DNA of 64,000 nt from Candidatus Thalassarchaeum sp. (GTDB lineage: Archaea; Thermoplasmatota; Poseidoniia; Poseidoniales; Thalassarchaeaceae). The notes beneath the pieces were generated by a model. That model did no database searches and was not told the DNA's origin. It worked only from the letters and a program-made list of their open reading frames with translations. Made by a program: the position numbers and the translations under genes. How positions within the stretch are numbered: the stretch's first letter is position 1; every line of letters starts with the position of its first letter. Shown one piece after another: positions 7,917 through 35,068 of the stretch. The stretch lies in assembly GCA_022449945.1 (NCBI GenBank), contig JAKURM010000001.1, forward strand, positions 7,569-71,568. Reading direction: 5' to 3'.

Positions 7917-10900
7917 TATCTCCGCCTCGTTCTGATTGGTCGTACGTAGCCCGACTCCCTATTCGTCCTCTCATCGGTTGTGAGATATGTTGGTTGCGGA
8001 GGCGGAGAGTGCTGATCCATCCCGGGCATCCCTCCTTCAGCCTGGACTTCGTCGACACCGTAATTATCTACCATTTCCATTGCATCAAGTTCATCGTCAT
8101 CTCTTTCCCTCATAACCATCCAACCCAGGATTGCAACTAGTAGGACCAGTGCCATTAGTCCTGCACTCTCTTTACCAGGAATCAGGTCATTAACGGTCAG
8201 ATCTGACAGAGTCTTCGGTGGCGCGGTATCCTGTATTGATAGTACTGTAACCACATAGTCCTTTGAAGAGCACACTCCAACCCCGTCACAGACGGTTAGT
8301 GAAATCCTGACTTCCCCCGGGCTTCCCCAGGTTTGATTATCTTCGATCCAATCGTCTCGTGTGTCACCGTCGCAACCCTCGATTGTCATGCAGTCAGAGT
8401 CATAGAATACGTCCAGATCCCAATTGAATTCTAATCCGCCAGTCAACGACCTATCCTTGTCATTCGCAGGATCTCCATCCCCGTCGCTATCGAAAAGCGC
8501 ATCCTCGTCAAGCCAAGCAGACTCGAGGAACAAATCGTCCAAATCACTAGCATTTTCCCACAATTCAACTGAATCCCCTTCGATCACGTACTCGCTGTCT
8601 ATCGGGTTTTTTGTCACAATCTTAGGAGCCTGTGAAACAATCACAACCATCTCTGTAGTGTTGGATTCGCCCTCTGCGAATCCATCAATCACAGTCAGCC
8701 TGACCACATACTCGCCAGATCTCTCATAATTGTGCCACACAACTGGTCCACTGGCGGGGGGACTAGCATCGCCAAAGTCCCAAATCCACGAAACAATTCC
8801 ATTCCATTCCGGACTGTTCATTTCGATTGAGGACTTCCCCTGGAATCCTGGATCTCCATCATGACTCCCGCTACCATCGAATCTAATCATATTGCCTGGA
8901 GCAACGAATCCACCTCCTGATGAGGTGTGGGGGACCTGCCAGACAATTGGTTCGTTGCCATCTGGAATTTCATTAATCATCTTCCCCTCCAAGCTAGGGC
9001 AACTGAAGGACAGTACTGGGATGGGAAGCGGGTTTTCTATGCTGAACAAGTATATCTTCGGAGCAGACGAAAGCCCCTTCTCGTCCAAGACTACAAGACT
9101 AACGCTGTAAAGCCCGGGTTCCGAGAATGTCCTACTAACCGACGAGGTATTCTCAATCGTACTGTCCATATCTGAAATCGTCCAAACATGTACAAGTGCT
9201 GACGAGTCCCCATCAGGGTCGAATGACGAGCTGTGGAAAATGTAGGCAGTCCCAACGTCACCATCAATTGGACGATCGAAAATAGCCACTGGGCGCTGGT
9301 TTAGGACTTCCACCTGAAAGAACGTAACAGAGGAATTTCCATCATCATCCGTAACTTCTAGTGTCACGTTCTTCAGGCCAGGTTCCCTCCAACCTACAAT
9401 CGGATTCGCCACGAATGATTTGATTTCTGAAAAATCAGATGCCAAAGAAAGTGACCCCCCTCCTAGGTTAACCCCTTCATCGAAGCTCCACCGGTACTCG
9501 ACAATGATTCCATCATCGTCAGTGAATACATCGGGCATACTGAGGGGAATCAGAGAATGAGTCTGTAGACTATCCGTTAGAATCTCCCTAGGCACTCTGT
9601 TCATCACTCTAACCAGGATTGATTTCTCTGCATATTGAGTCCCATCGCTTGCCCTTAGGGTCATTGAATACACCGTCCCATTAGCGCTTCCGTCGGCCCA
9701 GGAGTGTCCTACTTCGTAAAGTCCAACTCCCGAGTCAATCGATCCATCTCCGAAATCCCATTGGAAAGACAACTGCTCTATTGGAACGTTGTCCGATGTA
9801 CCAAATGAAGAGAACTGGACTCTCTGATTTGTATTGATAGTCAACTCATCATCTATTGAAATTCCTCCAATTGAGATATCCGGAATCGGATTTGATGAGT
9901 CATTCACGGAAATGTTCCAAGTCTGTATCTCGGAGAAATATCCACCAGCGTCTACTACTGTTAGAGAGATGGTATATTCACCTTGTTCCACATATGAATG
10001 GATGGGATTTTTGAGGCTAGAAATATTCCCGTCGCCTAGGTCCCAGATATACGATGAAGGCGTCTCATTTTGGTTGAAACTTCCATTTGATAATCCGAAC
10101 CCCCACGGATCAAACCCTCCTCCGAAAATATAGGTTGGCAACCATGTTTCGGTTAGGTTCGTTGAAATCGATCCAGACCCGAACGGCCTCATGTTAAACA
10201 CATATTCTGGAAGAGAGAGTGCTAAATCCTGCTCCTCGCCCATTATGTCGCTAATTCTGACTACAAAAGACACGTCACCGGAAAATTGCGGTGTGAACCA
10301 TATTGACTTGGTGGACGGCTCTCCGTTACTCGCAGAGAGGCCGAAACTTGCCGAGTCAACAACTGTGTTATTGGAGAATGCCTCTATTCCGACGTCTAGG
10401 GTCTCAAAGTATGCACTTGACGAAACGCTGATTGACAACTCAAGACTGTCATCTAGGCCGTCTTTGTCCCTATCGAAATCATGGATTGCGTCTATGGATA
10501 CCTCTGCTGGCTCGCTTAGTAGGTCGGCGTTAACCGTGAATGATCCGGTCGGATAAGAACCCCCAGGAAGGACTCCACAGTTTGCGAAGTCAATATCGCA
10601 ATCGTCTACCACCGAGTTGTACCAAACTAGTAGCCAAACTTCTGAGGTAGAATTTCCAAAACCGTGAATTAGTCCTGTTCCTATGCCGGTGGAACCATCT
10701 ATCCTAAGCTCGCTCATCGTCCAAGTCCCAGAAGACGCCTCTCTCACTAGTATCGCTCCTTCGAAACCGAATCTATCTGGTTGAATCATCAGATTTAGCG
10801 GATCTCCATTCCCCTGGGTGAACCTGAATGAGCTGAATCCCCAACCTTCCAAGCTGTACCCTTGTGACTGCCAAACTTCGGTCCAGACGCCATTTGACTC

Positions 10901-12052
10901 CCTAGGCGGTGCTCTGCAGAGAACTTCCGAATCACAGTCGTCCTCTAGATCTAGTTCAGAGAAACCAAATGCCCCCTGTGGGCTATCCAAGGTCATCGCA
11001 GCACTGAAGTTGGAGAATATCTCGCTCATGGTATCTCCCACAGGTGTCGATCCGGGGCCAGGGTTCCTAGCTAGGTTCTCTATCCCTGAACCGCCAATCG
11101 AAGAGTCAGACACAAGGCTCCTGATTGAAGGAGCACCCCCCAGCATGTCTGACAAGTACATCAGGAAGAGGAAGCCAGATCCCCTATCCGAAGACCTTTC
11201 ATTCCACCATCTGAGGCTCGTGCTTGTGTTCTCTGCCCATGAATTCGCATTCGACTCAAGATCAGAATTTGAACCGAAGCAAACGAACTCTGCCATCTCC
11301 GCAGCTCCTTCAACAATCCATAGGTACTCGTATGGGTCCCATGCATTGTGTATCAGTAGGCCAAACTCGTGGGCAAGAATTGGGTTCCTACTCCCAAGGT
11401 CGTCCACATCGACAAACAGGGACTCCCTGATCGAAGAAATGCTGGGCTGGAAGTACCCACCAGTTCCCCCAATTCCATCAACTGAGTGAACCACTATCTC
11501 GATTTGGCAATTGTTGTCCACATCAGGGGCGTCACCGAAGTGATTAGTATTGGTCGGATAGATTATCGATTCCCATGTCGAGGTGATGTCGTTAAGGGTG
11601 GTCGACGAAACAACCTGTCCATCCTCGACGAATACTGCGGCATTTGCAGACACCCTCTCGACCGTTGCCACGATCGTTCCATCTGTGGTTGTTATGTTAT
11701 CCGAATCACCAACGGACCACGCGCTCTCACAGCTTCTCTGATGCCCACGGGAATGTTGGCTCCCTTTTTCAAATGGGAGAAATAGGCCAGGGTATCCTTC
11801 TTTGGCCCATTCAATCTTCAAGTAGGATGAAGCTGAAAATAGCTCAACTCCCCCTTCGTTTAGTAAGTATGACCTCCCATCTTCTTCGAATTGGTAGGGG
11901 TATATCTCTCCAGAAATATCCTGATCATTTATTCCATTGTTTCCTTCTTCGGAGGTCACCACAGGTGTGGCAGTCGCAAATAGCATTGTCATCGACATGA
12001 TCAATACTCGGTGGGTTCGAGTATTTCCAGCAGCCCCATTCATGACAAACAC
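7916..12052 (-). CDS. giant exported PKD-repeat surface protein, C-terminally membrane anchored (adhesin-like)
   Basis: 1378 aa. Multiple PKD signatures (WDFGDGS, WDLGDGN, WDFGDAS), signal peptide, C-terminal TM (LMALVLLVAILGWMVM) and ~70-aa charged tail. Start uncertain (ATG at 12052, 12043 or 11998). Confidence 0.8.
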   Translation of the reverse strand: MFVMNGAAGNTRTHRVLIMSMTMLFATATPVVTSEEGNNGINDQDISGEIYPYQFEEDGRSYLLNEGGVELFSASSYLKIEWAKEGYPGLFLPFEKGSQHSRGHQRSCESAWSVGDSDNITTTDGTIVATVERVSANAAVFVEDGQVVSSTTLNDITSTWESIIYPTNTNHFGDAPDVDNNCQIEIVVHSVDGIGGTGGYFQPSISSIRESLFVDVDDLGSRNPILAHEFGLLIHNAWDPYEYLWIVEGAAEMAEFVCFGSNSDLESNANSWAENTSTSLRWWNERSSDRGSGFLFLMYLSDMLGGAPSIRSLVSDSSIGGSGIENLARNPGPGSTPVGDTMSEIFSNFSAAMTLDSPQGAFGFSELDLEDDCDSEVLCRAPPRESNGVWTEVWQSQGYSLEGWGFSSFRFTQGNGDPLNLMIQPDRFGFEGAILVREASSGTWTMSELRIDGSTGIGTGLIHGFGNSTSEVWLLVWYNSVVDDCDIDFANCGVLPGGSYPTGSFTVNADLLSEPAEVSIDAIHDFDRDKDGLDDSLELSISVSSSAYFETLDVGIEAFSNNTVVDSASFGLSASNGEPSTKSIWFTPQFSGDVSFVVRISDIMGEEQDLALSLPEYVFNMRPFGSGSISTNLTETWLPTYIFGGGFDPWGFGLSNGSFNQNETPSSYIWDLGDGNISSLKNPIHSYVEQGEYTISLTVVDAGGYFSEIQTWNISVNDSSNPIPDISIGGISIDDELTINTNQRVQFSSFGTSDNVPIEQLSFQWDFGDGSIDSGVGLYEVGHSWADGSANGTVYSMTLRASDGTQYAEKSILVRVMNRVPREILTDSLQTHSLIPLSMPDVFTDDDGIIVEYRWSFDEGVNLGGGSLSLASDFSEIKSFVANPIVGWREPGLKNVTLEVTDDDGNSSVTFFQVEVLNQRPVAIFDRPIDGDVGTAYIFHSSSFDPDGDSSALVHVWTISDMDSTIENTSSVSRTFSEPGLYSVSLVVLDEKGLSSAPKIYLFSIENPLPIPVLSFSCPSLEGKMINEIPDGNEPIVWQVPHTSSGGGFVAPGNMIRFDGSGSHDGDPGFQGKSSIEMNSPEWNGIVSWIWDFGDASPPASGPVVWHNYERSGEYVVRLTVIDGFAEGESNTTEMVVIVSQAPKIVTKNPIDSEYVIEGDSVELWENASDLDDLFLESAWLDEDALFDSDGDGDPANDKDRSLTGGLEFNWDLDVFYDSDCMTIEGCDGDTRDDWIEDNQTWGSPGEVRISLTVCDGVGVCSSKDYVVTVLSIQDTAPPKTLSDLTVNDLIPGKESAGLMALVLLVAILGWMVMRERDDDELDAMEMVDNYGVDEVQAEGGMPGMDQHSPPPQPTYLTTDERTNRESGYVRPIRTRRR

Positions 12053-19518: not shown

Positions 19519-20016
19519 ATGGATGGCGGGGACGACTCCGATGTAAATCCCATCGAAGACCTCGAGGAACTGTACAAGGAGCAGATTCAGGAATTGATGG
19601 AGAAGGAGTCAAAGAGGATAGTCTCTGAAAACACAGATCCCTCTGAAATTAGTAGGCTACAGTCCCTTTCCGTAGTGGATTTGTTCGAACGCGGCGACAG
19701 TGATATTGTTCCCGCATTGATGGCTCGCTTAGGTCCCGTCAGAGCAGCATTGGATGGGCATGGTGGCGCATTGGTGGTTACCGATGGCGTTGTAGAGGAA
19801 TCGAATGATGGCCGAAGGGTCATCTCCCTTATTTTGGACCTTGATGGTGCATGCGTATCTTGCGGAGCGGCACCAGGTACACTGAAAGGAATCCAGGACG
19901 ACCTTCTTGCAGAGAATGAGATTTCTTCCGTACGCTTTACTTCATCTATGCTGGAATGGTTTGATGAGATTCAGAAGGAGTTTGTTCTAGAGCATGGTGG
20001 CGTGACATTCGTCTAA
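19519..20016 (+). CDS. NifU/Nfu-like Fe-S scaffold domain protein with acidic N-terminal region
   Basis: C-terminal LDLDGACVSCGAAPGTLKGIQDDL (CxxC Nfu motif). Divergent from the sufCBD operon. Confidence 0.6.
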   Translation: MDGGDDSDVNPIEDLEELYKEQIQELMEKESKRIVSENTDPSEISRLQSLSVVDLFERGDSDIVPALMARLGPVRAALDGHGGALVVTDGVVEESNDGRRVISLILDLDGACVSCGAAPGTLKGIQDDLLAENEISSVRFTSSMLEWFDEIQKEFVLEHGGVTFV

Positions 20017-20663
20017 CCAATCAAGTCAACCAACCTGTGTATTGCTCTAGGGGAAAATCCGAGAACGGCTTCATCCCTGCCTTCAATCAAGGTTACGAAA
20101 TCAGCCGCCTCTCCGGCTATATCGTAACCCCCTGCCTTGCCCATCCAGGAGCCACTGTTGACGAGCGTCACTACTCCCTCCTCCCCTATGTCCTCGAATT
20201 CAACTATGGAGAAATCGGTCCAGAGCTCTACGGCCCAACCTTTGATAAAATAAATCGAATCTCCATCCTCGCCCTTCAGAACGAAACCGGGAGGATATGC
20301 TATTGCAGTTGATGACCAAACTCTATGCCTCCTGCCGGAAAGACGGATTAGCATCCCAGCAGCCTTTAGATGACCCGTAGGTTTACCCAACGGAAGCTTC
20401 GAGTCATCGGGGTCCTCGACCAGGGTGTCTGCCACAACCATTAATCGACCCCTAGGGTTAATTTTCGCCGATTCCAATATTGCATTTTCTGCCTTGTGAA
20501 GGCAAGCTGCTTCTACTTGATTGCTTACTTCTGAACCGTATATTGGCTCGGGCTCCGGCTCCATGATCGAGCAGAACTCCAGGCTTACGCCCATCCCCTT
20601 GACTCTAGAAGAAAGCCATTCTCTTCTCCTAGTCGACTCGGAGGCGAGAATTATCGAATCCAT
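20013..20663 (-). CDS. maf: Maf-like nucleoside triphosphate pyrophosphatase
   Basis: MDSIILASESTRRREWL matches the Maf N-terminal motif. Start taken at the internal ATG (20663), 8 nt after the subtilase stop. Confidence 0.7.
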   Translation of the reverse strand: MDSIILASESTRRREWLSSRVKGMGVSLEFCSIMEPEPEPIYGSEVSNQVEAACLHKAENAILESAKINPRGRLMVVADTLVEDPDDSKLPLGKPTGHLKAAGMLIRLSGRRHRVWSSTAIAYPPGFVLKGEDGDSIYFIKGWAVELWTDFSIVEFEDIGEEGVVTLVNSGSWMGKAGGYDIAGEAADFVTLIEGRDEAVLGFSPRAIHRLVDLIG

Positions 20664-20671
20664 TTGAATCC

Positions 20672-23600
20672 TCAGAGGTCTACTCTTTCTCCGCAAACGG
20701 GGCATTTGGTAGCGACAACTCCCTCGCCCGCGGAGAACCTTCCCCCACAGTTTGCACAAATTGTCGGTTTCCCTCCGACGAACTGACTTCCGGGTGCAAT
20801 ATCGGGGAATGGCAATTTATCCGGACTAACAACTTCTCCTTCTAAGATTTCAGCATCAGAAATAGGCATGCTGCCGGACTCGGCCCTTTTCTCTCTGCGC
20901 CCCCTCCTAGCGGAGGCCCCCGTGTCTTGCTCGGAACTCGACTCTACCAACTCAACCAAATTGGCATCTACTGAAATGTCGGAATCATCGACCAAGTCAA
21001 CTATGTCATCCTCCATTCGCACTTGGGTGCCATCATCGATAGCCCTTCTCTTGCCAATCCACCTAATTCCTTGGGCAGAAAGTGATACTAGTGTCACTAG
21101 GCCAAGAATGAGAATTGCGAAGGCTACTCCAATCACTAGAATCTCAAAACTTTCCTGGTCAAGTCCCAATGATGATCTTACCCGATCAACCAGGTCAACA
21201 TCCCTGATATCGCTGTCATCGTCAATTAGGGACCTGATTTGCCAACCGCTCGGAGTAGAGACAACTAGCATGCTTTCCCCGAGTTCGGGCGATCTATCTG
21301 CCATTTCGAATTGCCCTGAGACAATGACATTGGAAAGCCCGATCCAATTCCCCTCATAGCTGACTTTTCCGAATTCCACTTGAGGCCCATATGGCCCAAC
21401 TCTGTCGAAAATCACCTGCAAGCCATTAGCCGTCTCGATGATCTCCGAACCTGTCATCCCTCTAGCAGGGATTCGAGACTCCATTCCCTCTTCAGCTTTG
21501 AATCTTGAATCCGCCACAATCGAGACCAATTCCGAGTCTTGGGGGTCTCCCTCTCTCCAGATTGCGATTATACGATCCTCCTTGTCCTCAACAACAACGG
21601 CCAATTCAGGAAATGAAGCTTCATCCCCTACTGCCTTCTTGTAACTCCATGTCGAGTCAGAAATCCCCCCATGGGCATACCATAGGCCAATCCTCTCAAC
21701 TCCTGTTGTGTCGTTCCTACTTGTCTGGTAAAGGAGATGGCCCTGTTCATGCCCGAACTCTATTGCAAGCGGTTCTGATAATGATGGTGGAACATCTATG
21801 TCCGAAATTATGCTCGGATTTTGCGTCCAATCAGAAGAAGAGACCGGAGCATCAGCGTATATGGTGAAGATGTTTGTAACATCATCCATGGTTCCTCCTG
21901 TGAAAATATCCCTGTGGTAACCTGCAACGATGATTTCTGTATCCTTAACATCCAAGTCAACTCCCCAGTATTTTCCATCCGAAAGTGGCATTCCACCTAG
22001 GAGGTCTTGAATCGGGGCCATTCTGCATGTCGGGTCAATTGTCGAGTAGCTCACTGTCTGCATTAGGAAGCCGTTCGAGTCCAAATACCTCCTAGTCCAA
22101 ACTAGATGTGCATAGCCATCTTGAGTACTATGCACTGCTAGGTCTCCCGACCAACGATCCTCCATGATGTTGGTACATTGAATTAGTGACTTTGAAGGAG
22201 TAAGGCGGTAAAGGTACAGAGTCCCTTCCTTTTCGCTAATCAATATGTCACCCTCTTTTTTGTCAATACTGATTATCTCTATGGGTTCTTCCCCGATGTT
22301 GATATCAGCCGCCCTCGGCCCGGTCAAGGTTGAGCTGTCTACAAGGATCGTCTTGGACAGGTCATTGTTTGACCAGTCCAGGTCACTTCCATCTTCCACA
22401 ATCGCATTTATCCTGATATCCCTAGGACCAGAACCGTTTGGTGTGTAGTAGAAAGAAATCGTTGAGTGGGAACCTCCCAAGACAAATGGAGTGCTAGAGT
22501 TGCCAATCTGCTCCCACCCCCTCTCGGTCTTCTCTTCGAGAATACCAATCACTTCCATTGAATCTGTGGAACCTAGATTGTCCACCCTTGCCTCTATGAT
22601 GACTTGTTCTCCCGGCCGAGGAACTGCCGGACTGGTTGATATTGAGCCAGACCTAATTGCCAGGTCGACTCCTGGTGGCCTAGGGAGAACGGCGAATGTC
22701 CCAGAAAGTTGATTGTTCGAATCGTCCAATTCTTGAATAGAGTTCAACGGATCGATTGTAATTCCAATCTGCGCATCTCCTTCTGTACTTGGGTTCCAGT
22801 ACAGTACAATCTCTACGAATTCTCCAGTGTCTATGTTCGGGATGACGTACTCGTCTCTTCTAGAACCGCTTTCCTCCAGAATCACTCCGACATCGGTTGC
22901 CGCCTTGTCGCCGGTATTGCGCATAGTTGCCCTGACTTCCAGGAAAGTGTTAACATACGCCTCTTTCATTGGTATACCAAACTCTTGGACTGAGATCGAA
23001 CTACTTACGAACTGCAAATCTGGCTGTGGAGGGACATTGTCTACTACAACGAATCTACGTATCTCATCCGTAACTACTCCCGGGGCACTGATGAGCCTGA
23101 CAGACAGCCTATACTCGTCGTCTTTGACATTAGTGGTATCCCAGTTGAAACTCCAATCTTTCCATCCATAGTCCCCTTCGACGCACCGGGTGTCGCTTTG
23201 CTCTTCCCTGAACATGTGTACGCAGTATGGGTGATCGTCTACTTCGCCCGGACTGGAGCCATGCCCTATTCCATATGCGTCCCAGGTACCATCACTGTAG
23301 AATGCCCCTTCTTCCCAGTCCTCACTATCCAACCTCCATTGAATTGTTCCATTGAAAACCGATTGGAATTGACCCCTGACCTGCACAGATCCCGATACTT
23401 CATCAAGCCCGCTTGGTGACTCCAGGGTGATGTTGACCCTCCCAACCGGGAATGAGAACTCCGTGGTATTGCTCCATCTGCCGATATCGTTTCTTGCAGC
23501 AACCTCTCCATATACCATCACTTCACTGTACTCTTCGGGCAAATTGGGGACCGTGAAGGGGACGGTCCAATTGGTGATCCCGATTGGATTAGTCCAATCT

Positions 23601-25618
23601 ACTAACATAGATGCTGTTGTCGGCTTGTTGTACTCTTCTCTGTAGTTTATCCTAACCCGAACTAGGACTTCTTCTATCGTACCATTGTCCTCCCCATCTT
23701 CATCAATGTGCCCACGGAGGTTGTATGACTCGCCCTCAATAAGCCACGAGTGCTTTGCTGGGCTCTCTATCTCGACCCAGTGTCCTTGTTGGGGGTCTCC
23801 TGGGCCCAGGCTCTGGTTTGTATTACCACCTCCGGTACCAAACATTTCGCTAGCCACTAATCCCCCATCGATTATTCCGAATCCGTATTTTTCATTCCAT
23901 GAGTAGCCTTGGTATGTATCATCAGTAGACCATTCGTCTCTAAACTCCGATCCAGCCATCAGGAACTCCCTGATTGCCTCACTCCTGCTACCATCTTCCG
24001 AATCCATGAAGTCCATTTTCCTAGACTCCCCGATTTCCATCATGATTGCTACCAGTCCCGCCACAGCAGGCGTGGACATGCTTGAACCTGACTTCTGGAC
24101 ATAGTCATCCTTGGCCCTATTGACATCAGACCCCGGGATGATGCCGGAAGACTCAGCGTGCTTGGCCGAATTGATGTTTGATCCCGGGGCCACGACCCAC
24201 GGCTTCATTTCGTCATAGGAGTCGGCATCTCCGTCGTCCTGCCTCGGACCGTAGTTTGAACTGGAAGAAATCTGGTCATCCTCCCTATCTATCGAATTTT
24301 TGTCATCTAGCCAACCAACTGTAATTGCGGTGTCAGCCGAACCAACTGAGTTTACGTTGTTCGCACCATCGTTCCCTATTGCTGCAACGCACACCAACCC
24401 ACTTTCGGAAGCCTGGTTGACCAGATTCGCCTCTGCCGAGGTCCCGTCTTCGTTGTTGTCAGATGCTCCGGTACTGGCACGGCCGAAGGACATCGAGACA
24501 ACCTGGATTCCCCTGCTTGACTCGTTATTTCCCCAGTCGGTATCTTTGTTGTTTATCACCCATTGAAGTCCGGCTAGTATCGATTGTGAATTCCCCCCGC
24601 CGTAGTCCTCCATTACCTTGACGTCAACTAGGTAGGAGCCAGGGGCGTACCCTTGTACAACTCTAGAAGAGTCGCCTGTTCCCAGTGCGATTCCGGCTAC
24701 ATGCGTACCATGCCCATCTCCGTCATCCGGGTCTTCCTCCGAGCATCCAGATTGGCCGACTCCCGTCGAATCGCATCCTGCCACCCACTTTGGATCCTCG
24801 AGGTCGTCTGGCTCGTTTGAGTTGTCATTGTTGTCATCCGAAAAATCGTCAAGGGAGAAGTGCTCGTTATCCACTCCAGTGTCCAATATAGCAATCACAA
24901 TTCCAGAACCATGGTACCCAAGACCTCTGATGGCATCATCGTACACGTCGGATTGGCGGACCTTGGATCCTTTTGCTGCCTTGTCCAAGTAGGGAACGAT
25001 TACGTTTTGCTCTTCTACCAGGACAACCCCCTCCAATCCCCAGATTTCCATCAGGGAGCTAACAGGCACGTGATCCAGAACAATTGCATCTAAGTTGTCC
25101 ATCGGCATGAACCAAGACCCATCCTGTTCCCAGCCATGGGACTCTATGACTTCCCTGATGGAATTGATATCAGAGGTCCCAGGGTGCCATGCATAGTGGA
25201 CAATTATGGCTACAGTTTGTCTTCCATCATCCCCCAATATGGAAGTCTTGGAAACCGATTCCCTCTCTTCCAAGATTATTTTTTGTAGTCTATCATCAAG
25301 TCCATTTGAGTCAGCATCTGACCAGAATCCGTACCACCAACCATATTCCATAGCAGGGGGCGAGGAGTCAAGTGGGGTGAATTCCGGTGAGCGATTCTTT
25401 TCTTCACAGAGTAAGAATTCACAGAAGGACATATCGGCATCATTGCTTGATGGCTCGTTCAATGCCTCGTTGGCATCATTGGAGAGATTTCCTGAGGCCA
25501 TTCCAACCGAAATATCGAGCACCAACAACATCAAGGCAGCGATAATTGGTGTGACTGAACCAACCCTTTTTGACATGGCTCTCGTAGAGAGCCAAAGTAA
25601 TGGCCTGTATAACTCCAA
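20672..25618 (-). CDS. giant exported subtilisin-like (S8) serine protease, single C-terminal TM anchor, cytoplasmic tail ending in C4 zinc ribbon
   Basis: 1648 aa. Catalytic triad motifs VIAILDTGVD / HGTHVAGIA / GSSMSTPAVAG. TM ILVIGVAFAILILGLVTLVSL near residue ~1480. Tail has an acidic stretch, RRGRREKR, and CANCGG...KCPVCGE. Confidence 0.85.
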   Translation of the reverse strand: MELYRPLLWLSTRAMSKRVGSVTPIIAALMLLVLDISVGMASGNLSNDANEALNEPSSNDADMSFCEFLLCEEKNRSPEFTPLDSSPPAMEYGWWYGFWSDADSNGLDDRLQKIILEERESVSKTSILGDDGRQTVAIIVHYAWHPGTSDINSIREVIESHGWEQDGSWFMPMDNLDAIVLDHVPVSSLMEIWGLEGVVLVEEQNVIVPYLDKAAKGSKVRQSDVYDDAIRGLGYHGSGIVIAILDTGVDNEHFSLDDFSDDNNDNSNEPDDLEDPKWVAGCDSTGVGQSGCSEEDPDDGDGHGTHVAGIALGTGDSSRVVQGYAPGSYLVDVKVMEDYGGGNSQSILAGLQWVINNKDTDWGNNESSRGIQVVSMSFGRASTGASDNNEDGTSAEANLVNQASESGLVCVAAIGNDGANNVNSVGSADTAITVGWLDDKNSIDREDDQISSSSNYGPRQDDGDADSYDEMKPWVVAPGSNINSAKHAESSGIIPGSDVNRAKDDYVQKSGSSMSTPAVAGLVAIMMEIGESRKMDFMDSEDGSRSEAIREFLMAGSEFRDEWSTDDTYQGYSWNEKYGFGIIDGGLVASEMFGTGGGNTNQSLGPGDPQQGHWVEIESPAKHSWLIEGESYNLRGHIDEDGEDNGTIEEVLVRVRINYREEYNKPTTASMLVDWTNPIGITNWTVPFTVPNLPEEYSEVMVYGEVAARNDIGRWSNTTEFSFPVGRVNITLESPSGLDEVSGSVQVRGQFQSVFNGTIQWRLDSEDWEEGAFYSDGTWDAYGIGHGSSPGEVDDHPYCVHMFREEQSDTRCVEGDYGWKDWSFNWDTTNVKDDEYRLSVRLISAPGVVTDEIRRFVVVDNVPPQPDLQFVSSSISVQEFGIPMKEAYVNTFLEVRATMRNTGDKAATDVGVILEESGSRRDEYVIPNIDTGEFVEIVLYWNPSTEGDAQIGITIDPLNSIQELDDSNNQLSGTFAVLPRPPGVDLAIRSGSISTSPAVPRPGEQVIIEARVDNLGSTDSMEVIGILEEKTERGWEQIGNSSTPFVLGGSHSTISFYYTPNGSGPRDIRINAIVEDGSDLDWSNNDLSKTILVDSSTLTGPRAADINIGEEPIEIISIDKKEGDILISEKEGTLYLYRLTPSKSLIQCTNIMEDRWSGDLAVHSTQDGYAHLVWTRRYLDSNGFLMQTVSYSTIDPTCRMAPIQDLLGGMPLSDGKYWGVDLDVKDTEIIVAGYHRDIFTGGTMDDVTNIFTIYADAPVSSSDWTQNPSIISDIDVPPSLSEPLAIEFGHEQGHLLYQTSRNDTTGVERIGLWYAHGGISDSTWSYKKAVGDEASFPELAVVVEDKEDRIIAIWREGDPQDSELVSIVADSRFKAEEGMESRIPARGMTGSEIIETANGLQVIFDRVGPYGPQVEFGKVSYEGNWIGLSNVIVSGQFEMADRSPELGESMLVVSTPSGWQIRSLIDDDSDIRDVDLVDRVRSSLGLDQESFEILVIGVAFAILILGLVTLVSLSAQGIRWIGKRRAIDDGTQVRMEDDIVDLVDDSDISVDANLVELVESSSEQDTGASARRGRREKRAESGSMPISDAEILEGEVVSPDKLPFPDIAPGSQFVGGKPTICANCGGRFSAGEGVVATKCPVCGERVDL

Positions 25619-25644
25619 CCTATCCGGGCCTCAATCCGGTGACG

Positions 25645-26760
25645 TTATGGCCACTCGAAATGGGAAGCGGAAACCCCACATCTTAGTGTGCAAACATCGC
25701 GTTCAACCATTGCTATAATCTCCCCATCACATTTTGGACAGATCGTGTTTTCTGCCAACTCTTCTAGCCATGCTTGCCTGGTCTCCAGTTCATCACCTTC
25801 TTGACGAAGCTTAGCCAGAACTCTAGCCGCTCGACCTTCTAACTTCTTGCCCGACAGACTCCAGGGGTCTTCTCCCAGAACACCCATGCTCTCAACCGCC
25901 CGCCTTCTTGTTCCAGGAGAAAAACCACCTGATACCGTAGCACTTTCGTATAATTCACTGGGTGCCCCTTTGGCAATTGGTCGAGCTGCCACGTAGGCCA
26001 GTAAGAAGCCACCAACATGAGCCATATGTGCCACATTACTTTCTCCCGCCGTCCCTGTCTGTATGGAGTATATCTGGAATATCTCGAGCCCCAGCCTGAA
26101 GAATGCAATGAGCCATACAGGCCATGCCCGGATCAGGAACAATAGTGGGAACTCTATCTTGTCCTCGGGCCAACATGCCATGTACGCACCGAGAATTCCA
26201 AAGGCCGCGCCGCTTGCTCCTATTGCAGGAACAGATGACTGCGGATGAGTCGCAATCCACGCTATATTGCCTCCTAGCAGACCAATGATGTATACTGCAA
26301 TCCACCTCTTTGGACCCATCCTCTGCTCAAGTGGAACCCCGGCTAGTGCAATTACCAGAACGTTACCCAAGACGTGGATGAAATCCGCATGCAACCATGC
26401 TGCCGTAATTATTCTGTGATAATGGCCAAATCCTTCTCCGATGGGGATATTTTGATCTGTAAATATAGTCGGAACCAAGCTGAAAAAATGAATTGGGTGG
26501 AAGCTAATATTGAAAGTCTCCAGGGCAAACTGCAGAAACATTACCAGCAATAGAGAAAGTACCGTTGCCAGCGCAATGCTTGTCTGATTCCGTATTGCAG
26601 ATATGTATGGCCAAATTGCAACGGTAATTATTGCTACTACCCACAGCATGTCCGTTGACTCAAGAAGTCCCCATGCCCAGTCACTATCCGATGGCGCCGA
26701 CGCCATAACGGGCCCTGCTACCTTGTCCCCAAGAGTGCTTCGTAGGACGGAACCCCTCAT
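25645..26760 (-). CDS. rhomboid-family intramembrane serine protease with C-terminal cytoplasmic zinc ribbon
   Basis: GASGAAFGILGAY (GxSG) and AHMAHVGGFLLAY (catalytic His), ~6 TM. C-terminal CPKCDG...CTLRCG. Start uncertain (alternatives at 26706). Confidence 0.8.
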   Translation of the reverse strand: MRGSVLRSTLGDKVAGPVMASAPSDSDWAWGLLESTDMLWVVAIITVAIWPYISAIRNQTSIALATVLSLLLVMFLQFALETFNISFHPIHFFSLVPTIFTDQNIPIGEGFGHYHRIITAAWLHADFIHVLGNVLVIALAGVPLEQRMGPKRWIAVYIIGLLGGNIAWIATHPQSSVPAIGASGAAFGILGAYMACWPEDKIEFPLLFLIRAWPVWLIAFFRLGLEIFQIYSIQTGTAGESNVAHMAHVGGFLLAYVAARPIAKGAPSELYESATVSGGFSPGTRRRAVESMGVLGEDPWSLSGKKLEGRAARVLAKLRQEGDELETRQAWLEELAENTICPKCDGEIIAMVERDVCTLRCGVSASHFEWP

Positions 26761-26784: not shown

Positions 26785-28197
26785 ATGGGCCGGCTCTCCA
26801 TTGCCGAGACTAGGGAAGTTGTCGTCCACAGGGGTTCAAGCAGGGTCCTCTCATCCACATCATTCTCCCTCGAAGAGGGACAACTAGTTGCTATCGTAGG
26901 AGAAAACGGCTCTGGGAAGACAACATTGATCGAGACTCTAGCAGGAATAATCCCTCTGAGGGAAGGTGGTGTTTATTGGAGGGGAAAAGAAGGGAAAATT
27001 GTCACAGTAAGGGACTCTGAAGGACGTAGGAATGCCCCCCCGCCGATGGGACTGACTCTTCAAAAGGATGGGATATGCGGGGATGAGACCGTCAGAGAGC
27101 GCATGTCTGCTTCTCTAGAAGTAGCCGGGCTAAAGGTAGGAAACGAGGTAATAAACAATTTATTGGAAACGTGGGGGATATACCACAGATCTGAGGATCG
27201 AGTTCTTCAACTCTCAGGAGGTCTTCGAAGGAGACTCTCGCTGTTATGCGGAATCGCACCCGCGGCACTTCGTGATGAACCAACTGCTGTACTACTTGAC
27301 GAACCTTCAGAAGGCCTTGACAAATCAGCAAAGGATACATTGGTGGGTTGGCTAAGGGCACTTTCCTCTAGGAATCACGGAGTTGTCTTTGCAACCCATG
27401 ACAGTGATTTGATCAAATGCGCAGATAGGGTATTATACATCAATGATGGGCATCTATCGGAGGAAAAGGGAGAGTCTTCAGGTAATCTCTGTGTGTTGCC
27501 AGAAACATGTACCTCGGAGGAGCCCAGCCCAATATTCTCGGCTGTAAGATGGGCTCTAAGGACGGAGTACAGGAACCCCATCGATACCATTGGCAAGGCT
27601 ACTCCAGCAGTAGTCTGCCTCTTGCTGGCATATGCCTTAGTAGGGGAATTGGATATTGATTCCCATGGTAGTGAACTTCTTGCAGCATTGGTTCTTGCCC
27701 CGGCATTCATTACGGCAATATCCTCTCCCGCAATACTGCACCGTCTTTCCGAATCAGACAGCGGTAGGTGGTGGGATGCAGTGGTGGGCCCAATGGCTCG
27801 TCCAGCCTTCTCAATCGGAGGGGCTTCGATACTATTGCCAATCCCCATTGTTTACCTCTCTTGGTTCGTCCTAGCGGGCTCGGTAGATCCTAATACTTCA
27901 TCAGAGGTACTTTGGTGGCTTTGGCTGCCTGCGCTCTCAATGTTGGACTTGGCCGTGGCAGCAACTTCACTACATCTTCTGGTTTCTGACCTATCCAGGT
28001 CAAGTGCCGTACCTGCACCTCTTCTTCTGATTGTTCTGGTTTGGCCATTCCTTGAGCTCACTGATGCATTGGCAGCAATTATCGATGGGGGGATGGAATT
28101 CAGCCTCACCCTGCAGGATCCGATAATTACGTGCCTAATCGCCAGCCTAATCTCCGCTCTAGTCTGGCTTGGAGCTGTACTGATTCCAGATTATTGA
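26785..28197 (+). CDS. CcmA-CcmB-like fusion: ABC ATPase domain fused to ABC-2/CcmB-like permease (heme exporter)
   Basis: Walker A GENGSGKTT, signature LSGGLRRRL, Walker B VLLDEPSEGLD, then ~220 aa with ~6 TM. Lies upstream of ccmC. Confidence 0.55.
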   Translation: MGRLSIAETREVVVHRGSSRVLSSTSFSLEEGQLVAIVGENGSGKTTLIETLAGIIPLREGGVYWRGKEGKIVTVRDSEGRRNAPPPMGLTLQKDGICGDETVRERMSASLEVAGLKVGNEVINNLLETWGIYHRSEDRVLQLSGGLRRRLSLLCGIAPAALRDEPTAVLLDEPSEGLDKSAKDTLVGWLRALSSRNHGVVFATHDSDLIKCADRVLYINDGHLSEEKGESSGNLCVLPETCTSEEPSPIFSAVRWALRTEYRNPIDTIGKATPAVVCLLLAYALVGELDIDSHGSELLAALVLAPAFITAISSPAILHRLSESDSGRWWDAVVGPMARPAFSIGGASILLPIPIVYLSWFVLAGSVDPNTSSEVLWWLWLPALSMLDLAVAATSLHLLVSDLSRSSAVPAPLLLIVLVWPFLELTDALAAIIDGGMEFSLTLQDPIITCLIASLISALVWLGAVLIPDY

Positions 28198-28235
28198 GGA
28201 AGAGCATTCTTGACTAGTCAAACAGTCGCAGACTC

Positions 28236-28949
28236 GTGCTTGATTCGAGGTCGGCAGCCGTCCCACTCACTGCCTTGGGCCTGCTTGGGGCTGGTACTAC
28301 TGCTATTCTAGGATTTGTTTGGGCGCCATTGGTTAACCCCGATGTATGGCATGCCCCAGAGGCATATCGGATTCTCTACTGGCACGTTCCTTTCGCATGG
28401 ACTTCTTTCCTTGCGTTCTGCCTATTGTTCGCTGGCTCTCTGTTATGGTTCCTCAGACGTTCCGAGAGGGGATGGGGGATGCTTGTCATTGGTTCCGAAC
28501 TTGGGCTCCTTTTTGGAACTGGGGTAATAATTTCTGGGCCCATTTGGGCTTCGGCGGAGTGGGGTGTTCCATGGGACTGGGGGGACGCACGGCTGAATAC
28601 GTATGCCTTGCTAACGGCTGTTGCACTTTTCCTTGTGATGTCCATCAGAAGCCAACCGGATGGTGAAGAGACCAGAGACAGCCTTTCCACCATCGGAATA
28701 TTGGGATGCGTCGTATTGGTTCCCATTACCGTATTCGCAACCACGCTTTGGCAAAATAGACACCCAGGTGTCGTCGTATTAGAGTCAGAGGAGACTGGCC
28801 TGGATCCAGATATCAAGCTAGTTTTGATGCTGGGCACGGCCTCTTTCCTAGTCTTATTTGCCGGGCTAGTGGCACTGAACGATGCGATCAGGTCGGCTTC
28901 CAAGAAAAACGAGGAATTACTGCTGTCCATCGATAAGGAGGCTCTTTGA
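28236..28949 (+). CDS. ccmC: cytochrome c-type biogenesis heme exporter protein CcmC
   Basis: 237 aa, 6 TM, WWD-domain signature WGVPWDWGDARLNTYALL (compare WGxxWxWDxRLT in CcmC). Confidence 0.75.
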   Translation: MLDSRSAAVPLTALGLLGAGTTAILGFVWAPLVNPDVWHAPEAYRILYWHVPFAWTSFLAFCLLFAGSLLWFLRRSERGWGMLVIGSELGLLFGTGVIISGPIWASAEWGVPWDWGDARLNTYALLTAVALFLVMSIRSQPDGEETRDSLSTIGILGCVVLVPITVFATTLWQNRHPGVVVLESEETGLDPDIKLVLMLGTASFLVLFAGLVALNDAIRSASKKNEELLLSIDKEAL

Positions 28950-29149: not shown

Positions 29150-30208
29150 ATGACTGGAGGGGCTTTTTGCATTATTTGTGGAGCGGAACCCCCCCTTTCT
29201 TCCGACAGGATGTGCGAGACCTGCCTCAGGGAGAGAACCGTCCTATCCATGATCCCTGAAAGGATTCAACAGGACAGATGTGCAAAGTGCTCCTCTTACG
29301 AAGTAAAGGGCAGATGGTCGAAAATGTCCGAAGATGACATCTCCGATATGAGGGTCAGAGAAAATCTAGTTCTCGAAGAGCGGGCCCTGGGGGCTAGCAT
29401 CTCATTCTCATCTCAGATTATCGATGACAGGACCATCAGGCTAGAAGTGGATGTCAGTGGAATAATCGAGGGTTACGAATTTTCCGACTCCCATTCAACC
29501 CTGCTCCAAACGAGCAATGCCGTTTGCCCCTCGTGTACTAGGAAGGCGGGTGACTACTTCGAAGCAACAGTTCAACTGCGTTCTGCTGGAAGGAAACTCG
29601 ACGCGCAGGAATTGGCCGACCTAAGGTCAACTCTGGACGAACTGATAGAGTCCATGGAATCGAACCCGATGTTCTTCGTGACAAAAGAAGGGCCAGTCCC
29701 AGGTGGCTGGGATTTGCAACTGGGCTCGAAGAGCCTTGCTAGAAGTTGGGGTCGGAATCTCGTCAAATCTTTTGGGGGTTCAGTCAAGGAAAGCTCGACA
29801 GTAGTTGGTATGAACGATGGCGTGGAGGTAACAAGGCTGACCCTCAGTTACAGGAAGCCCGCGTACGCCATCGGAGACGTGGTAAAACACAAGAAGTCAC
29901 TATGGCTTGTGTCTAATTGGCAGAAGGACGGCCCGATTCTGCGAAGGATAGACAGATTTGAGAGAAGCGGCGCTACTTGGCGAGACATGGAATCATCCTC
30001 CGTAGTGTGTTCGAAGTCCGAACAGCATGTAATACAGGTCCTGAACAGAGACAGCTCTGCTGCCGAGTTCATGGATCCATCAGACTACAAGGTCACAACA
30101 GTGGCACTTCCCTACGATGACGACGGTGAAGCGGGAGAATTGCGCATCGCCTTCATAGACGGGGGGTGGCTGGCTCTGCCTGTCTCTGACAGGAGTGGCG
30201 GGAAATGA
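29150..30208 (+). CDS. NMD3-family ribosomal large-subunit export/biogenesis protein homolog
   Basis: N-terminal four CxxC pairs (CIICG...CETC...CAKCSSY...), ~350 aa, as in archaeal Nmd3. Confidence 0.6.
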   Translation: MTGGAFCIICGAEPPLSSDRMCETCLRERTVLSMIPERIQQDRCAKCSSYEVKGRWSKMSEDDISDMRVRENLVLEERALGASISFSSQIIDDRTIRLEVDVSGIIEGYEFSDSHSTLLQTSNAVCPSCTRKAGDYFEATVQLRSAGRKLDAQELADLRSTLDELIESMESNPMFFVTKEGPVPGGWDLQLGSKSLARSWGRNLVKSFGGSVKESSTVVGMNDGVEVTRLTLSYRKPAYAIGDVVKHKKSLWLVSNWQKDGPILRRIDRFERSGATWRDMESSSVVCSKSEQHVIQVLNRDSSAAEFMDPSDYKVTTVALPYDDDGEAGELRIAFIDGGWLALPVSDRSGGK

Positions 30209-33814: not shown

Positions 33815-35068
33815 ATGGCAGCATCCATAGGTGACCACGTTACTCCCGGCTCTCCAATAGAATTTGGCCCCGGGTCAGATTTTGGCGAGGGAATTCATGT
33901 TTCAGAAAAGGGTGCCGTGGCAGTCCTTTCAGGGCAAATAGTGAGTGATTCTGGGAAAATTTCTGTCGAATCATCCGTACCACCAATAAATTCGCCGAAG
34001 ATGGGCGATGTATTGATCGGTGAGGTGAACAGACTCAACGAGAAGACTGCAGAGATCAGAGTTCTTCATATTGAGTCAAACGAAGGGGGCCATAGGGCCG
34101 TACCGGCACTGAAGCTGTTCGCTGACATCTACGTTTCCGAGATAGTGGATCGATTCATCCCATCAGCGGGGGATGCCATGAGGAAGCGCGACATCGTCAG
34201 GGCGAAAGTGATCAAGGTTGAGCCGATGTTGAAGGCCACAACCAAGGGGGACTCCAAACTCGGGGTCCTCCATGCAGCATGTCCGCCTTGCGGGGTAGAA
34301 CTAGTTGTGAGCGAAAAGACCCCTGACTTCAACGTAGAATGCCCTCGATGCGACTACAGGGGTTTCAGGGCCCTTTCAAACGGCTTCGGGCATGGATTCG
34401 ATATCCCAAAAGGCTCTGACATCCAGAGCCTAAATCGTCCTGGCCAGAGATGGTCAGAAGAAGCGGAATCAATGCTTGGTCACGATGGAGCCCGCCCGTA
34501 CCTCTCACCCGTAGCCGATCATAGGCGTGGCTGGGCCCACGAGATCCCAGCATCAGCCAGGAGATCGCAATCCACAAGGGGCGGTGGGAGGCAGAAGAGG
34601 GAGATGTTCCCTACCGAATGCACTCTTTGCGGCGACTCGACCAAGGTTCCCTTCAAACCCACGCCCGGGAAGCCAATTCGTTGTAGGGGGTGCATGGAGA
34701 AAGTAGAGTCGGGCAATGCCGACAAGGATTCCCTCGCCAAGGAAAGGAAGATCATCAAGATGGCCAGAGAGAAGTCCCAAGGCGAAATTGGTGCCAAACT
34801 CTTCGTCGGTGGAATATCCTATGACGCATCCGAGGATGACCTCAGGGAGGCGTTTTCAACCCATGGCAAACTGAAGGAAGTCCACCTGGCCATGGACAAA
34901 GAAAAGAACAGGCCAAAGGGATTCGCATTCGTGACATTCTCCAGCAAGGAAGAAGCAAAGAAGGCAATTAAGGCATTGAATAACACCGAATTCAAGGGAA
35001 GGCGGATATCTGTAGAGGAATCAAAACCCCGTGGCCGAAATCGAAGCCAGGGTCGTAGAAGAAGATAA
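33815..35068 (+). CDS. csl4: exosome RNA-binding subunit Csl4 fused to an extra zinc ribbon and a C-terminal RRM domain
   Basis: Residues ~60-200 colinear with archaeal Csl4 (S1 domain GDVLIGEVNRL...VLHIESN...DIVRAKVIKV, Zn-ribbon CPPCG...ECPRCD). Then CTLCGDS...CRGCMEK. Then a canonical RRM (RNP2 LFVGGI, RNP1 KGFAFVTF). Confidence 0.7.
   Translation: MAASIGDHVTPGSPIEFGPGSDFGEGIHVSEKGAVAVLSGQIVSDSGKISVESSVPPINSPKMGDVLIGEVNRLNEKTAEIRVLHIESNEGGHRAVPALKLFADIYVSEIVDRFIPSAGDAMRKRDIVRAKVIKVEPMLKATTKGDSKLGVLHAACPPCGVELVVSEKTPDFNVECPRCDYRGFRALSNGFGHGFDIPKGSDIQSLNRPGQRWSEEAESMLGHDGARPYLSPVADHRRGWAHEIPASARRSQSTRGGGRQKREMFPTECTLCGDSTKVPFKPTPGKPIRCRGCMEKVESGNADKDSLAKERKIIKMAREKSQGEIGAKLFVGGISYDASEDDLREAFSTHGKLKEVHLAMDKEKNRPKGFAFVTFSSKEEAKKAIKALNNTEFKGRRISVEESKPRGRNRSQGRRRR

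Follow-up and report, generated by a model that had tools for sequence, protein, structure and literature searches.

Why does a rhomboid intramembrane protease lie directly in front of a giant subtilase in a marine archaeon, and do the two enzymes work together? The question arises from a 64,000-nucleotide (nt) stretch of a Candidatus Thalassarchaeum sp. genome (assembly GCA_022449945.1, contig JAKURM010000001.1, forward-strand positions 7,569 to 71,568; hereafter the window, with position 1 as its first letter). Here a rhomboid gene, a gene for a membrane-anchored S8-family protease (subtilase) and a maf gene follow one another on the minus strand, and their positions agree with those in the initial annotation of this DNA. 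That annotation read the three genes as an operon, proposed a sheddase with its tethered protease, and took zinc ribbons at the C-termini of both proteases as a sign that the two pair or share a cytoplasmic partner. Our comparative analysis of the sequences identifies the rhomboid and the subtilase, without maf, as the conserved unit across the order Poseidoniales. Related rhomboids in other clades adjoin a different anchored exoenzyme of the PLD family.

The rhomboid open reading frame encodes 371 amino acids (aa) and matches PF01694 with E = 1.6e-26 (93.7 bits against a cut-off of 22.6). The motifs GASGA (Ser183), HMAHVGG (His248) and, in transmembrane (TM) helix 2, HVLGN (His129 and Asn133) are invariant in 15 orthologs. 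An AlphaFold2 (AF2) model built on 15 orthologs displays seven TM helices, comprising an extra N-terminal helix and a six-TM core. The top Foldseek matches of this model in the PDB were all GlpG or iRhom, with probability 1.0. The scores of these matches were weak (E ~1e-2, TM-score ~0.55) because the confidence of the model is moderate, and a sequence search against PDB chains returned nothing at E ≤ 0.01. By profile, motifs and predicted fold, the protein is a catalytically intact member of the S54/PF01694 family, bearing out the early identification of a rhomboid from its GxSG and His motifs. The six-helix core of GlpG ends in the cytoplasm, and the tail that follows the core here is therefore predicted to be cytoplasmic. 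Most orthologs begin at Met19 (position 26706), so this is probably the true start, giving a protein of 353 aa. The ATG of the longer reading frame (26760) lies 24 nt from the ATG of a divergent ccmA-like gene (26785).

The subtilase matches PF00082 with E = 5e-39 (134.7 bits), and its catalytic triad (Asp232, His289 and Ser499) and oxyanion residue (Asn402) are invariant in orthologs, in the numbering of a 1634-aa protein. The length first proposed was 1648 aa, from a TTG at 25618. This TTG falls within a conserved TATA-like element, whereas orthologs share the ATG at 25576 as their start. The protein thus has 1634 residues, and 68 nt, not 26 nt, separate its gene from that of the rhomboid. 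The rest of the early description stands: the protein has all three catalytic motifs, an ectodomain of ~1450 aa and one TM helix. In order, it comprises an N-terminal signal-like segment, the S8 domain, a CARDB/Ig region, a propeller, the TM helix (residues 1479–1497) and the tail. The tail runs, as described, from an acidic stretch through RRGRREKR to a CANCGG..KCPVCGE terminus (CANCGGRFSAGEGVVATKCPVCGERVDL), although it measures 137 aa and not the claimed ~150, with 25 acidic and 16 basic residues.

In the AF2 model of the C-terminal 560 residues, a multi-bladed propeller is followed by a juxtamembrane helix, which is short, and by a long TM helix; the tail beyond is disordered up to a small β-unit at its end. 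The propeller is built from repeated four-strand blades, with predicted local distance difference test (pLDDT) values mostly between 75 and 90, and in the PDB Foldseek matches it to propeller lectins and to the propeller of prolyl oligopeptidase (E ~1e-7 to 1e-8). Following it are a helix at 388–396 and then the long helix at 400–436 (model numbering). The tail is disordered except for short terminal strands (pLDDT 59–71). In the terminal CxxC-x14-CPxC pattern, the cysteines are invariant across Marine Group IIb (MGIIb, Thalassarchaeaceae), Marine Group IIa (MGIIa, Poseidoniaceae) and a 35%-identical ortholog from a more divergent locus (L094). Conserved putative ligands and short predicted strands together mark this C-terminus as a putative zinc ribbon.

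All subtilase orthologs examined share one C-terminal layout, in which the TM helix is followed by an acidic stretch, then a basic cluster, a Pro-rich linker and, at the end, CxxC..CPxC. Within MGIIb, the juxtamembrane and TM segment is conserved beyond what simple hydrophobicity asks for, the conserved alignment columns being R1467, L1470-G-L-D1473, F1477, I1479-L1480, G1483 and R1505-W1506. The propeller/TM/tail module was found on no other protein, with 36 of 36 matches being fragments of orthologous subtilases. One C-terminal fragment among the orthologs (P0336) has the JGI label ‘DNA-directed RNA polymerase subunit RPC12/RpoP’, an annotation artefact evidently arising from the terminal ribbon. 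Some tails carry tandem Pro-rich repeats before the ribbon, namely ten copies of LPPLGD in L094 (L094:11088–16070) and ELPPLP-type repeats in P0344.

How far does the arrangement reach? A genome scan for the rhomboid was followed through its best 80 of 255 matches, which are GTDB species-level representatives, all Thalassarchaeaceae (MGIIb) and all with rhomboids at least 54% identical to that of the window; one genome contig (L028, Arabian9_MAG_35) is 95% identical. In 80/80 of these species genomes, the rhomboid gene is followed by a subtilase ortholog within about 70–220 nt. The surrounding block (nmd3-ccmC-ccmA, then rhomboid-S8-(maf)-nifU-sufC on the other side of the divergent start) is also collinear in all 80. 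Adjacency within MGIIb alone therefore cannot separate function from inertia.

Lineages beyond MGIIb were reached by way of 50%-identity cluster representatives and exact-protein look-ups. The adjacency recurs in four more divergent Poseidoniales clusters, whose rhomboids are 41–47% identical to that of the window. The MGIIa representative (L087, Poseidoniaceae; rhomboid 43% identical) has a 31-nt spacer, a 1607-aa S8 protein and then glmS, a kaiC-like gene and maf. In two loci with rhomboids 47% identical, the rhomboid gene is followed by genes for a 1625-aa S8 protein and glmS (L090), or a 1632-aa S8 protein, glmS, a kaiC-like gene and maf (L180). The most divergent (L094; 41% identical) lacks the ccm genes and has NMD3, the rhomboid and then a 1660-aa protein, which contains a full S8 domain and is 35% identical to the window subtilase over 1404 residues. 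The subtilase orthologs, of 1589–1660 aa, lie directly after the rhomboid in every Poseidoniales locus examined. The genes downstream of the four divergent pairs differ, with glmS in three and an unidentified 271-aa open reading frame in L094. The proposed check of synteny across Poseidoniales thus came out in favour of the pair: a rhomboid and a type-I subtilase are kept side by side in the 80 MGIIb genomes and the four divergent lineages, despite different downstream genes and, in L094, the absence of ccm.

The third gene fares differently. A single functional module of rhomboid, subtilase and maf would account for the shared strand, the gap of 8 nt that separates the subtilase stop codon from the ATG of maf, and the presence of maf after the S8 gene in most MGIIb loci. 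The maf gene is absent from five MGIIb loci in which the S8 gene abuts nifU (L012, L039, L041, L053 and L068). In L087 and L180, glmS and the kaiC-like gene (the latter on the opposite strand in L180) stand between the S8 gene and maf. In L090 the equivalent position holds a 200-aa open reading frame with no Pfam match, and maf was seen in neither L090 nor L094. Maf is a cytoplasmic house-cleaning nucleotide pyrophosphatase, with no evident link to either protease. We consider the three-gene module highly improbable, and maf drops out of the system as first conceived. The gene product matches the Maf family profile (PF02545, E = 7e-25; 88.2 bits against a cut-off of 27), with all NCBIfam equivalog models scoring under their cut-offs.

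The 68-nt spacer bears on the same question. Between the rhomboid and subtilase genes, the spacing is almost always 67–70 nt in MGIIb. An element, GGTTGGAGTTATAC, about 31–45 nt upstream of the subtilase ATG is kept in most MGIIb loci, and by its sequence it resembles a TATA-box promoter element. A palindrome, GGCTCTC-N3-GAGAGCC, is nearly invariant in 20 divergent loci and has its sole match within the window here. Folded as RNA, it gives -12.7 kcal/mol (z = -2.5), and no covariation was found among the divergent loci, the stem being unvaried. It may act in RNA, as a hairpin at the 5′ end, or in DNA, as the operator of a dimeric regulator; as it folds well but without covariation, we do not claim an RNA element in preference to a DNA operator. 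Either role would make it probable that a regulated promoter of its own serves the subtilase gene, which weakens the ‘operon’ label. Of the two gaps first given (26 nt and 8 nt), only the 8-nt gap between subtilase and maf holds. The common strand and short gaps still speak for an operon of three genes, whereas the conserved TATA-like element and palindrome in the 68-nt spacer make a simple one doubtful.

Two neighbours may also stay together with no shared task. On this explanation, the adjacency results from stable gene order, the rhomboid has different clients (its task might be general quality control of membrane proteins, which has been proposed for GlpG and YqgP) and the subtilase is permanently anchored. 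The complete collinearity in MGIIb fits, as do the promoter-like element of the subtilase and the upstream side of the locus, where NMD3, PGI and M23 are kept even in L094. It fits less well that the downstream side has been rearranged (maf/nifU, glmS/kaiC-like or other genes), yet the S8 gene stays beside the rhomboid. The more telling evidence against it comes from homologous rhomboids outside Poseidoniales.

Related rhomboids that carry the same C-terminal tail, 29–36% identical to that of the window, have a gene for a PLD-family exoenzyme immediately upstream, often overlapping. In HGW-Thermoplasmata-1 (L096; L096:6963–10972), the gene for a 1013-aa CARDB/LTD/PLD protein runs 4 nt into the start of the rhomboid gene, and the C-terminus of this protein consists of a TM helix followed by DWRRRFG. 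We scanned metagenomes with seven distant rhomboids; about 14 of 80 loci were tail-bearing family members, and the remaining generic rhomboids were left out. In one metagenome clade (P0150-like), a large PLD-family protein lies directly upstream of the rhomboid and overlaps it in 9 of 10 informative loci (PLD-rhomboid loci among L099, L101, L102 and L104–L109), ending in a TM helix and RDWRKRKW (...YKNTIYIVVIFTLTFALIARDWRKRKW(T)). A 592-aa PLDc_2 protein overlaps the rhomboid in the P0174 locus, and in a Thermoplasmatales contig (L178; L178:1655–4622) the gene for a 694-aa LTD+PLD protein stops 1 nt short of the rhomboid gene. In the fifth clade (L181; L181:1–6033), a PLD-like protein with a TM helix and an HRMRRRW end lies two genes upstream.

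These partners are secreted, NucT/DrmC-like proteins that end 7–8 residues after the TM helix, without a cytoplasmic tail or ribbon, and the genes flanking them are entirely different between the five clades. Searches with a 43-aa profile of the PLD C-terminus matched only short PLD C-terminal fragments, providing no evidence that the signal is shared with other families. The zinc-ribbon rhomboid family is thus repeatedly paired with a secreted enzyme that one TM helix at its C-terminus keeps in the membrane, and the PLD-rhomboid arrangement looks like an undescribed dedicated rhomboid-target pair. We regard this recurrence as the most informative result of the comparison; it supports a dedicated protease-substrate relationship. 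With homologs in five other clades adjoining a different tail-anchored exoenzyme amid different flanks, inertia alone is unlikely as the cause, and the idea that rhomboid and subtilase are mere neighbours seems to us rather unlikely.

Do the two zinc-ribbon tails pair? In the rhomboid, the tail (residues ~295–371; pLDDT 80–91) is modelled with helices at 310–321 and 325–337 and strands at 347–353 and 356–361. The putative metal ligands Cys341, Cys344, Cys361 and His367 are invariant in the Poseidoniales alignment; four conserved putative ligands on a predicted β-hairpin are what is expected of a zinc ribbon. The tail was first described by its CPKCDG...CTLRCG cysteines. A Cys-bearing, ribbon-like tail is indeed present, but the invariant putative ligands do not include the CTLRC cysteines as a pair, the first of them (Cys357) not being conserved in Poseidoniales. 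No Pfam model covers this tail, and zinc-ribbon models match it below threshold only.

Among the 150 best 50%-identity cluster representatives of the rhomboid, the strict helix-plus-ribbon pattern occurs in 57 and a ribbon within the last 110 residues in 67, and the tail-bearing representatives make up most of the full-length sequences. The tail consensus is (D/E)EPEVRxAWLExF....CPxCGxxL......CxCG, with the ribbon becoming CPxC...CxxC in the wider family. Where tail-bearing rhomboids have organism names, these are labelled Thermoplasmata, Thermoplasmatales or Poseidoniaceae. On this distribution, the tail is a family-wide, ancestral module and not a device that evolved to match the subtilase tail. 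The analysis thus defines an uncurated domain, a helical hairpin with a zinc ribbon.

A non-proteolytic partnership, like that of iRhom2 and ADAM17, has to be considered here. The rhomboid would bind the TM helix and tail of the subtilase as a chaperone, regulator or scaffold, and the zinc-ribbon tails would contact each other or a shared cytoplasmic factor, as the initial annotation had it. The solved iRhom2/ADAM17 complexes (PDB 8snl and 9o58) show a rhomboid fold holding a type-I anchored, single-pass protease, in a system where cytoplasmic extensions matter. Both tails in the window are conserved with zinc-ribbon-type CxxC knuckles, and their profiles align at 84–94% probability (hhalign). 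A CxxC..CxxC-type motif occurs in 4 of about 56 crude window genes, and among these only the two adjacent proteases are membrane proteins. Within the window, ribbons are thus no generic tails of unrelated membrane proteins, a possibility raised from the outset, yet the ribbon of the rhomboid is generic to its own family.

The remaining evidence runs the other way. The iRhoms are eukaryotic and catalytically dead, whereas the window rhomboid retains its Ser-His dyad and HxxxN. In the profile-profile alignment only the Cys knuckles align, and we rejected specific relatedness of the two ribbons as evidence for pairing, the match being driven by these knuckles. The PLD partners have no tail or ribbon, so the ribbon domain of the rhomboid cannot exist for the purpose of pairing with a partner ribbon. 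With the tail family-wide (57–67 of 150), found beside tailless PLD partners, and similar to that of the subtilase in Cys pattern only, the claim that matching tails imply pairing is not supported, and an iRhom-like partnership is in our view distinctly unlikely.

Two sets of window proteins touch on these tails. The other ribbon-type proteins are NMD3 (29150–30208) and a protein with two ribbons and an RRM (33815–35068, plus strand), whose orthologs are annotated zf_Tbcl_2 and RRM_1. A 1378-aa surface protein with PKD repeats (7916–12052, minus strand) has a signal peptide, a single C-terminal TM helix and a ~70-aa tail without a zinc ribbon, and can serve as an internal control for generic tails.

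Rhomboids cut single-pass proteins of N-out/C-in topology. The subtilase and the PLD partners are both predicted to be single-pass proteins of this topology, and both proteases of the window retain their catalytic residues, which supports a protease acting on a client. Alongside these intact residues, we observe in the two proteins the domain content and topology signals of a rhomboid and an anchored exoenzyme, adjacency throughout the order, and family-wide pairing with C-terminally anchored exoenzymes. On this sequence evidence, the best explanation is a client pair, in which the rhomboid is an intramembrane protease dedicated to the giant subtilase; we see about equal chances of this reading being right or wrong.

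Under the client-pair reading, the subtilase would be exported through Sec, its S8 domain, Ig/CARDB stalk and β-propeller would fold outside the cell, and one C-terminal TM helix would hold it on the cell surface. The active site of the rhomboid would open to the outer leaflet, where it may recognise and cut the R..LGLD...F.IL..G segment; the juxtamembrane/TM segment of the subtilase is thus a candidate recognition and cleavage region. The cut would detach the 1450-aa ectodomain, for shedding (release) or for turnover (degradation), leaving a cytoplasmic stub of ~140 aa. The acidic tail helix of the rhomboid may dock the basic membrane-proximal end of its clients. The early suggestion of a sheddase with a tethered protease therefore holds as far as topology, order-wide adjacency and the coupling to PLD enzymes elsewhere fit it; the cleavage itself, its site, its consequence and any role of either zinc ribbon are what we infer.

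Several observations weigh against the client-pair reading. The 137-aa conserved tail of the subtilase is unlike known sorting signals, and the TM segments of MGIIa subtilases keep the LGLD/G/RW motif of MGIIb poorly. The order of genes also differs from that in the PLD pairs, with the rhomboid first in Poseidoniales and a spacer of 31–150 nt after it (holding its own TATA-like element in MGIIb). Two members of the rhomboid family (L092 and L179) lack neighbours of either kind, PLD or S8. Because the upstream synteny described above is also order-wide, part of the adjacency could be inherited gene order. A broader version of the client-pair reading, in which a zinc-ribbon rhomboid subfamily, apparently Thermoplasmatota-wide, processes a co-encoded anchored exoenzyme (a nuclease or phospholipase of PLD type in most clades, with S8 swapped in for it in Poseidoniales) and the cut releases a signalling tail, is possible but would be a tentative extension, which we think is more probably wrong than right.

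The closest described parallel is rhombosortase with its GlyGly-CTERM targets. There too, a rhomboid is dedicated to secreted enzymes with a C-terminal TM anchor, including serine proteases such as VesB, and Gadwal et al. report experimental processing of VesB by rhombosortase (2018, PMC6219818). In 16 of 21 genomes with a single GlyGly-CTERM target, the rhombosortase gene lies next to that of the target (Haft & Varghese 2011, PMC3237569), a likeness in logic, not in membership, to the adjacency in every Poseidoniales locus examined. The rhombosortase model TIGR03902 is the best NCBIfam match of the window rhomboid, at 42.3 bits against a cut-off of 84, and a distant family member (P0150) scores 42.8 bits. 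Rhombosortases are bacterial (Gram-negative), whereas the present family is archaeal, and the window rhomboid has an extra N-terminal TM helix and a helix/zinc-ribbon tail. The GlyGly-CTERM signal is short, combines a Gly-rich motif, a TM helix and a small basic cluster, and occupies the very end of the protein, unlike the 137-aa tail with zinc ribbon of the subtilase, which matches no NCBIfam sorting-signal model and does not end in a tripartite signal. The PLD partners, with motif, TM helix and basic end, come much closer to such a signal, with no Gly-Gly motif in their TM + RDWRKRKW ends. By analogy, the window pair is rhombosortase-like in logic and not a member.

Zinc-binding domains are known from other archaeal rhomboids. 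Some haloarchaeal rhomboids carry an N-terminal AN1 zinc finger (PMC4343526), and together with RhoI and RhoII of Haloferax volcanii (PMC4343526, PMC11985538) they resemble the window rhomboid in having a cytoplasmic zinc-binding domain and a link to the cell surface. The AN1 domain is N-terminal and of another zinc fold, whereas the domain here is a C-terminal helical hairpin with a zinc ribbon, and no conserved neighbour or substrate candidate is reported for the haloarchaeal enzymes. Rhomboid shedding elsewhere (Drosophila Rhomboid-1/Spitz; Plasmodium ROM4/EBA-175, PMC2064393; Providencia AarA/TatA) likewise frees the ectodomain of a single-pass protein by an intramembrane cut near the outer leaflet. 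The proteins cut in those cases are ligands, adhesins or TatA rather than a 1450-aa enzyme, and none is co-encoded as a conserved pair. All Marine Group II metagenome-assembled genomes are reported to have 1–4 extracellular S8 peptidases (PMC6864105); the window subtilase is one of these, and its TM anchor, zinc-ribbon tail and rhomboid linkage are not described there. In the literature that we searched, we found no account of a rhomboid paired with a subtilase or a PLD enzyme, nor of a zinc ribbon on Thermoplasmatota rhomboids, in agreement with the early remark that the arrangement is not a described system.

The features of the locus are listed in Table 1.

Table 1. Positions of the rhomboid, subtilase and maf genes and of their predicted parts in the window (all on the minus strand).
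Feature	Position	Strand	Basis or remark
Rhomboid intramembrane serine protease	25645–26760	-	PF01694, invariant motifs, AF2 model, fold matches
Rhomboid catalytic core, residues 113–259, end of L1 to TM6	25984–26424	-	Pfam stretch
Rhomboid predicted cytoplasmic tail domain: two helices (including EGDELETRQAWLEELAE) and CPxC...C...H zinc-ribbon-like hairpin	25648–25878	-	
GGTTGGAGTTATAC TATA-box-like element, rhomboid-subtilase spacer	25607–25620	-	Conservation in MGIIb
Perfect palindrome GGCTCTC-TAC-GAGAGCC	25577–25593	-	Abuts subtilase start codon
Giant S8 subtilase, 1634 aa, predicted type-I topology	20672–25576	-	
Subtilase putative signal peptide MSKRVGSVTPIIAALMLLVLDISVGMAS	25493–25576	-	Hydropathy, n/h/c-region layout; predicted cleavage
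Peptidase S8 catalytic domain (D232, H289, N402, S499)	23876–24910	-	PF00082
CARDB domain inside Ig-like stalk region	22703–22978	-	PF07705, E = 3.6e-16
Membrane-proximal β-propeller, about 7 blades	21221–22297	-	AF2 model, Foldseek
Juxtamembrane motif R..LGLD...F and TM helix	21047–21193	-	Conserved alignment columns, model
Subtilase TM helix ILVIGVAFAILILGLVTLV	21086–21142	-	Near-invariant G1483, inner RW
Subtilase predicted cytoplasmic tail, 137 aa	20675–21085	-	Acidic stretch, RRGRREKR, Pro-containing linker, terminal ribbon
Subtilase putative terminal zinc ribbon CANCGG..KCPVC	20693–20758	-	
Maf nucleotide pyrophosphatase	20013–20663	-	PF02545; neighbour outside the conserved pair

Divergent from the rhomboid gene (26785–28949, plus strand), one gene encodes a 470-aa protein in which a ccmA-like ABC ATPase is joined to a membrane domain of six helices, and another encodes a CcmC-like protein. 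This pair is of the cytochrome c maturation type, and the arrangement is kept in MGIIa and MGIIb and absent in L094.

To our knowledge, only a few prokaryotic rhomboids have known natural substrates. The substrates of archaeal rhomboids remain unidentified, and the latest Haloferax work lists their identification as future work (PMC11985538). The giant subtilase is a testable candidate that could become the first archaeal protein known as a natural substrate of a rhomboid, and the PLD-rhomboid and rhomboid-S8 pairs offer clonable substrate candidates with a defined TM/juxtamembrane segment. Whether the S8 protease is anchored or shed bears on the use of high-molecular-weight protein by Marine Group II, that is, on whether the products are kept or become public goods. 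If the broader reading given above is true, a rhomboid cut would determine, in globally abundant planktonic archaea, whether their main surface protease remains on the cell or enters seawater. The same cut would also free a conserved intracellular domain of ~140 aa with its zinc ribbon, which could report surface proteolysis to the cell in the manner of regulated intramembrane proteolysis.

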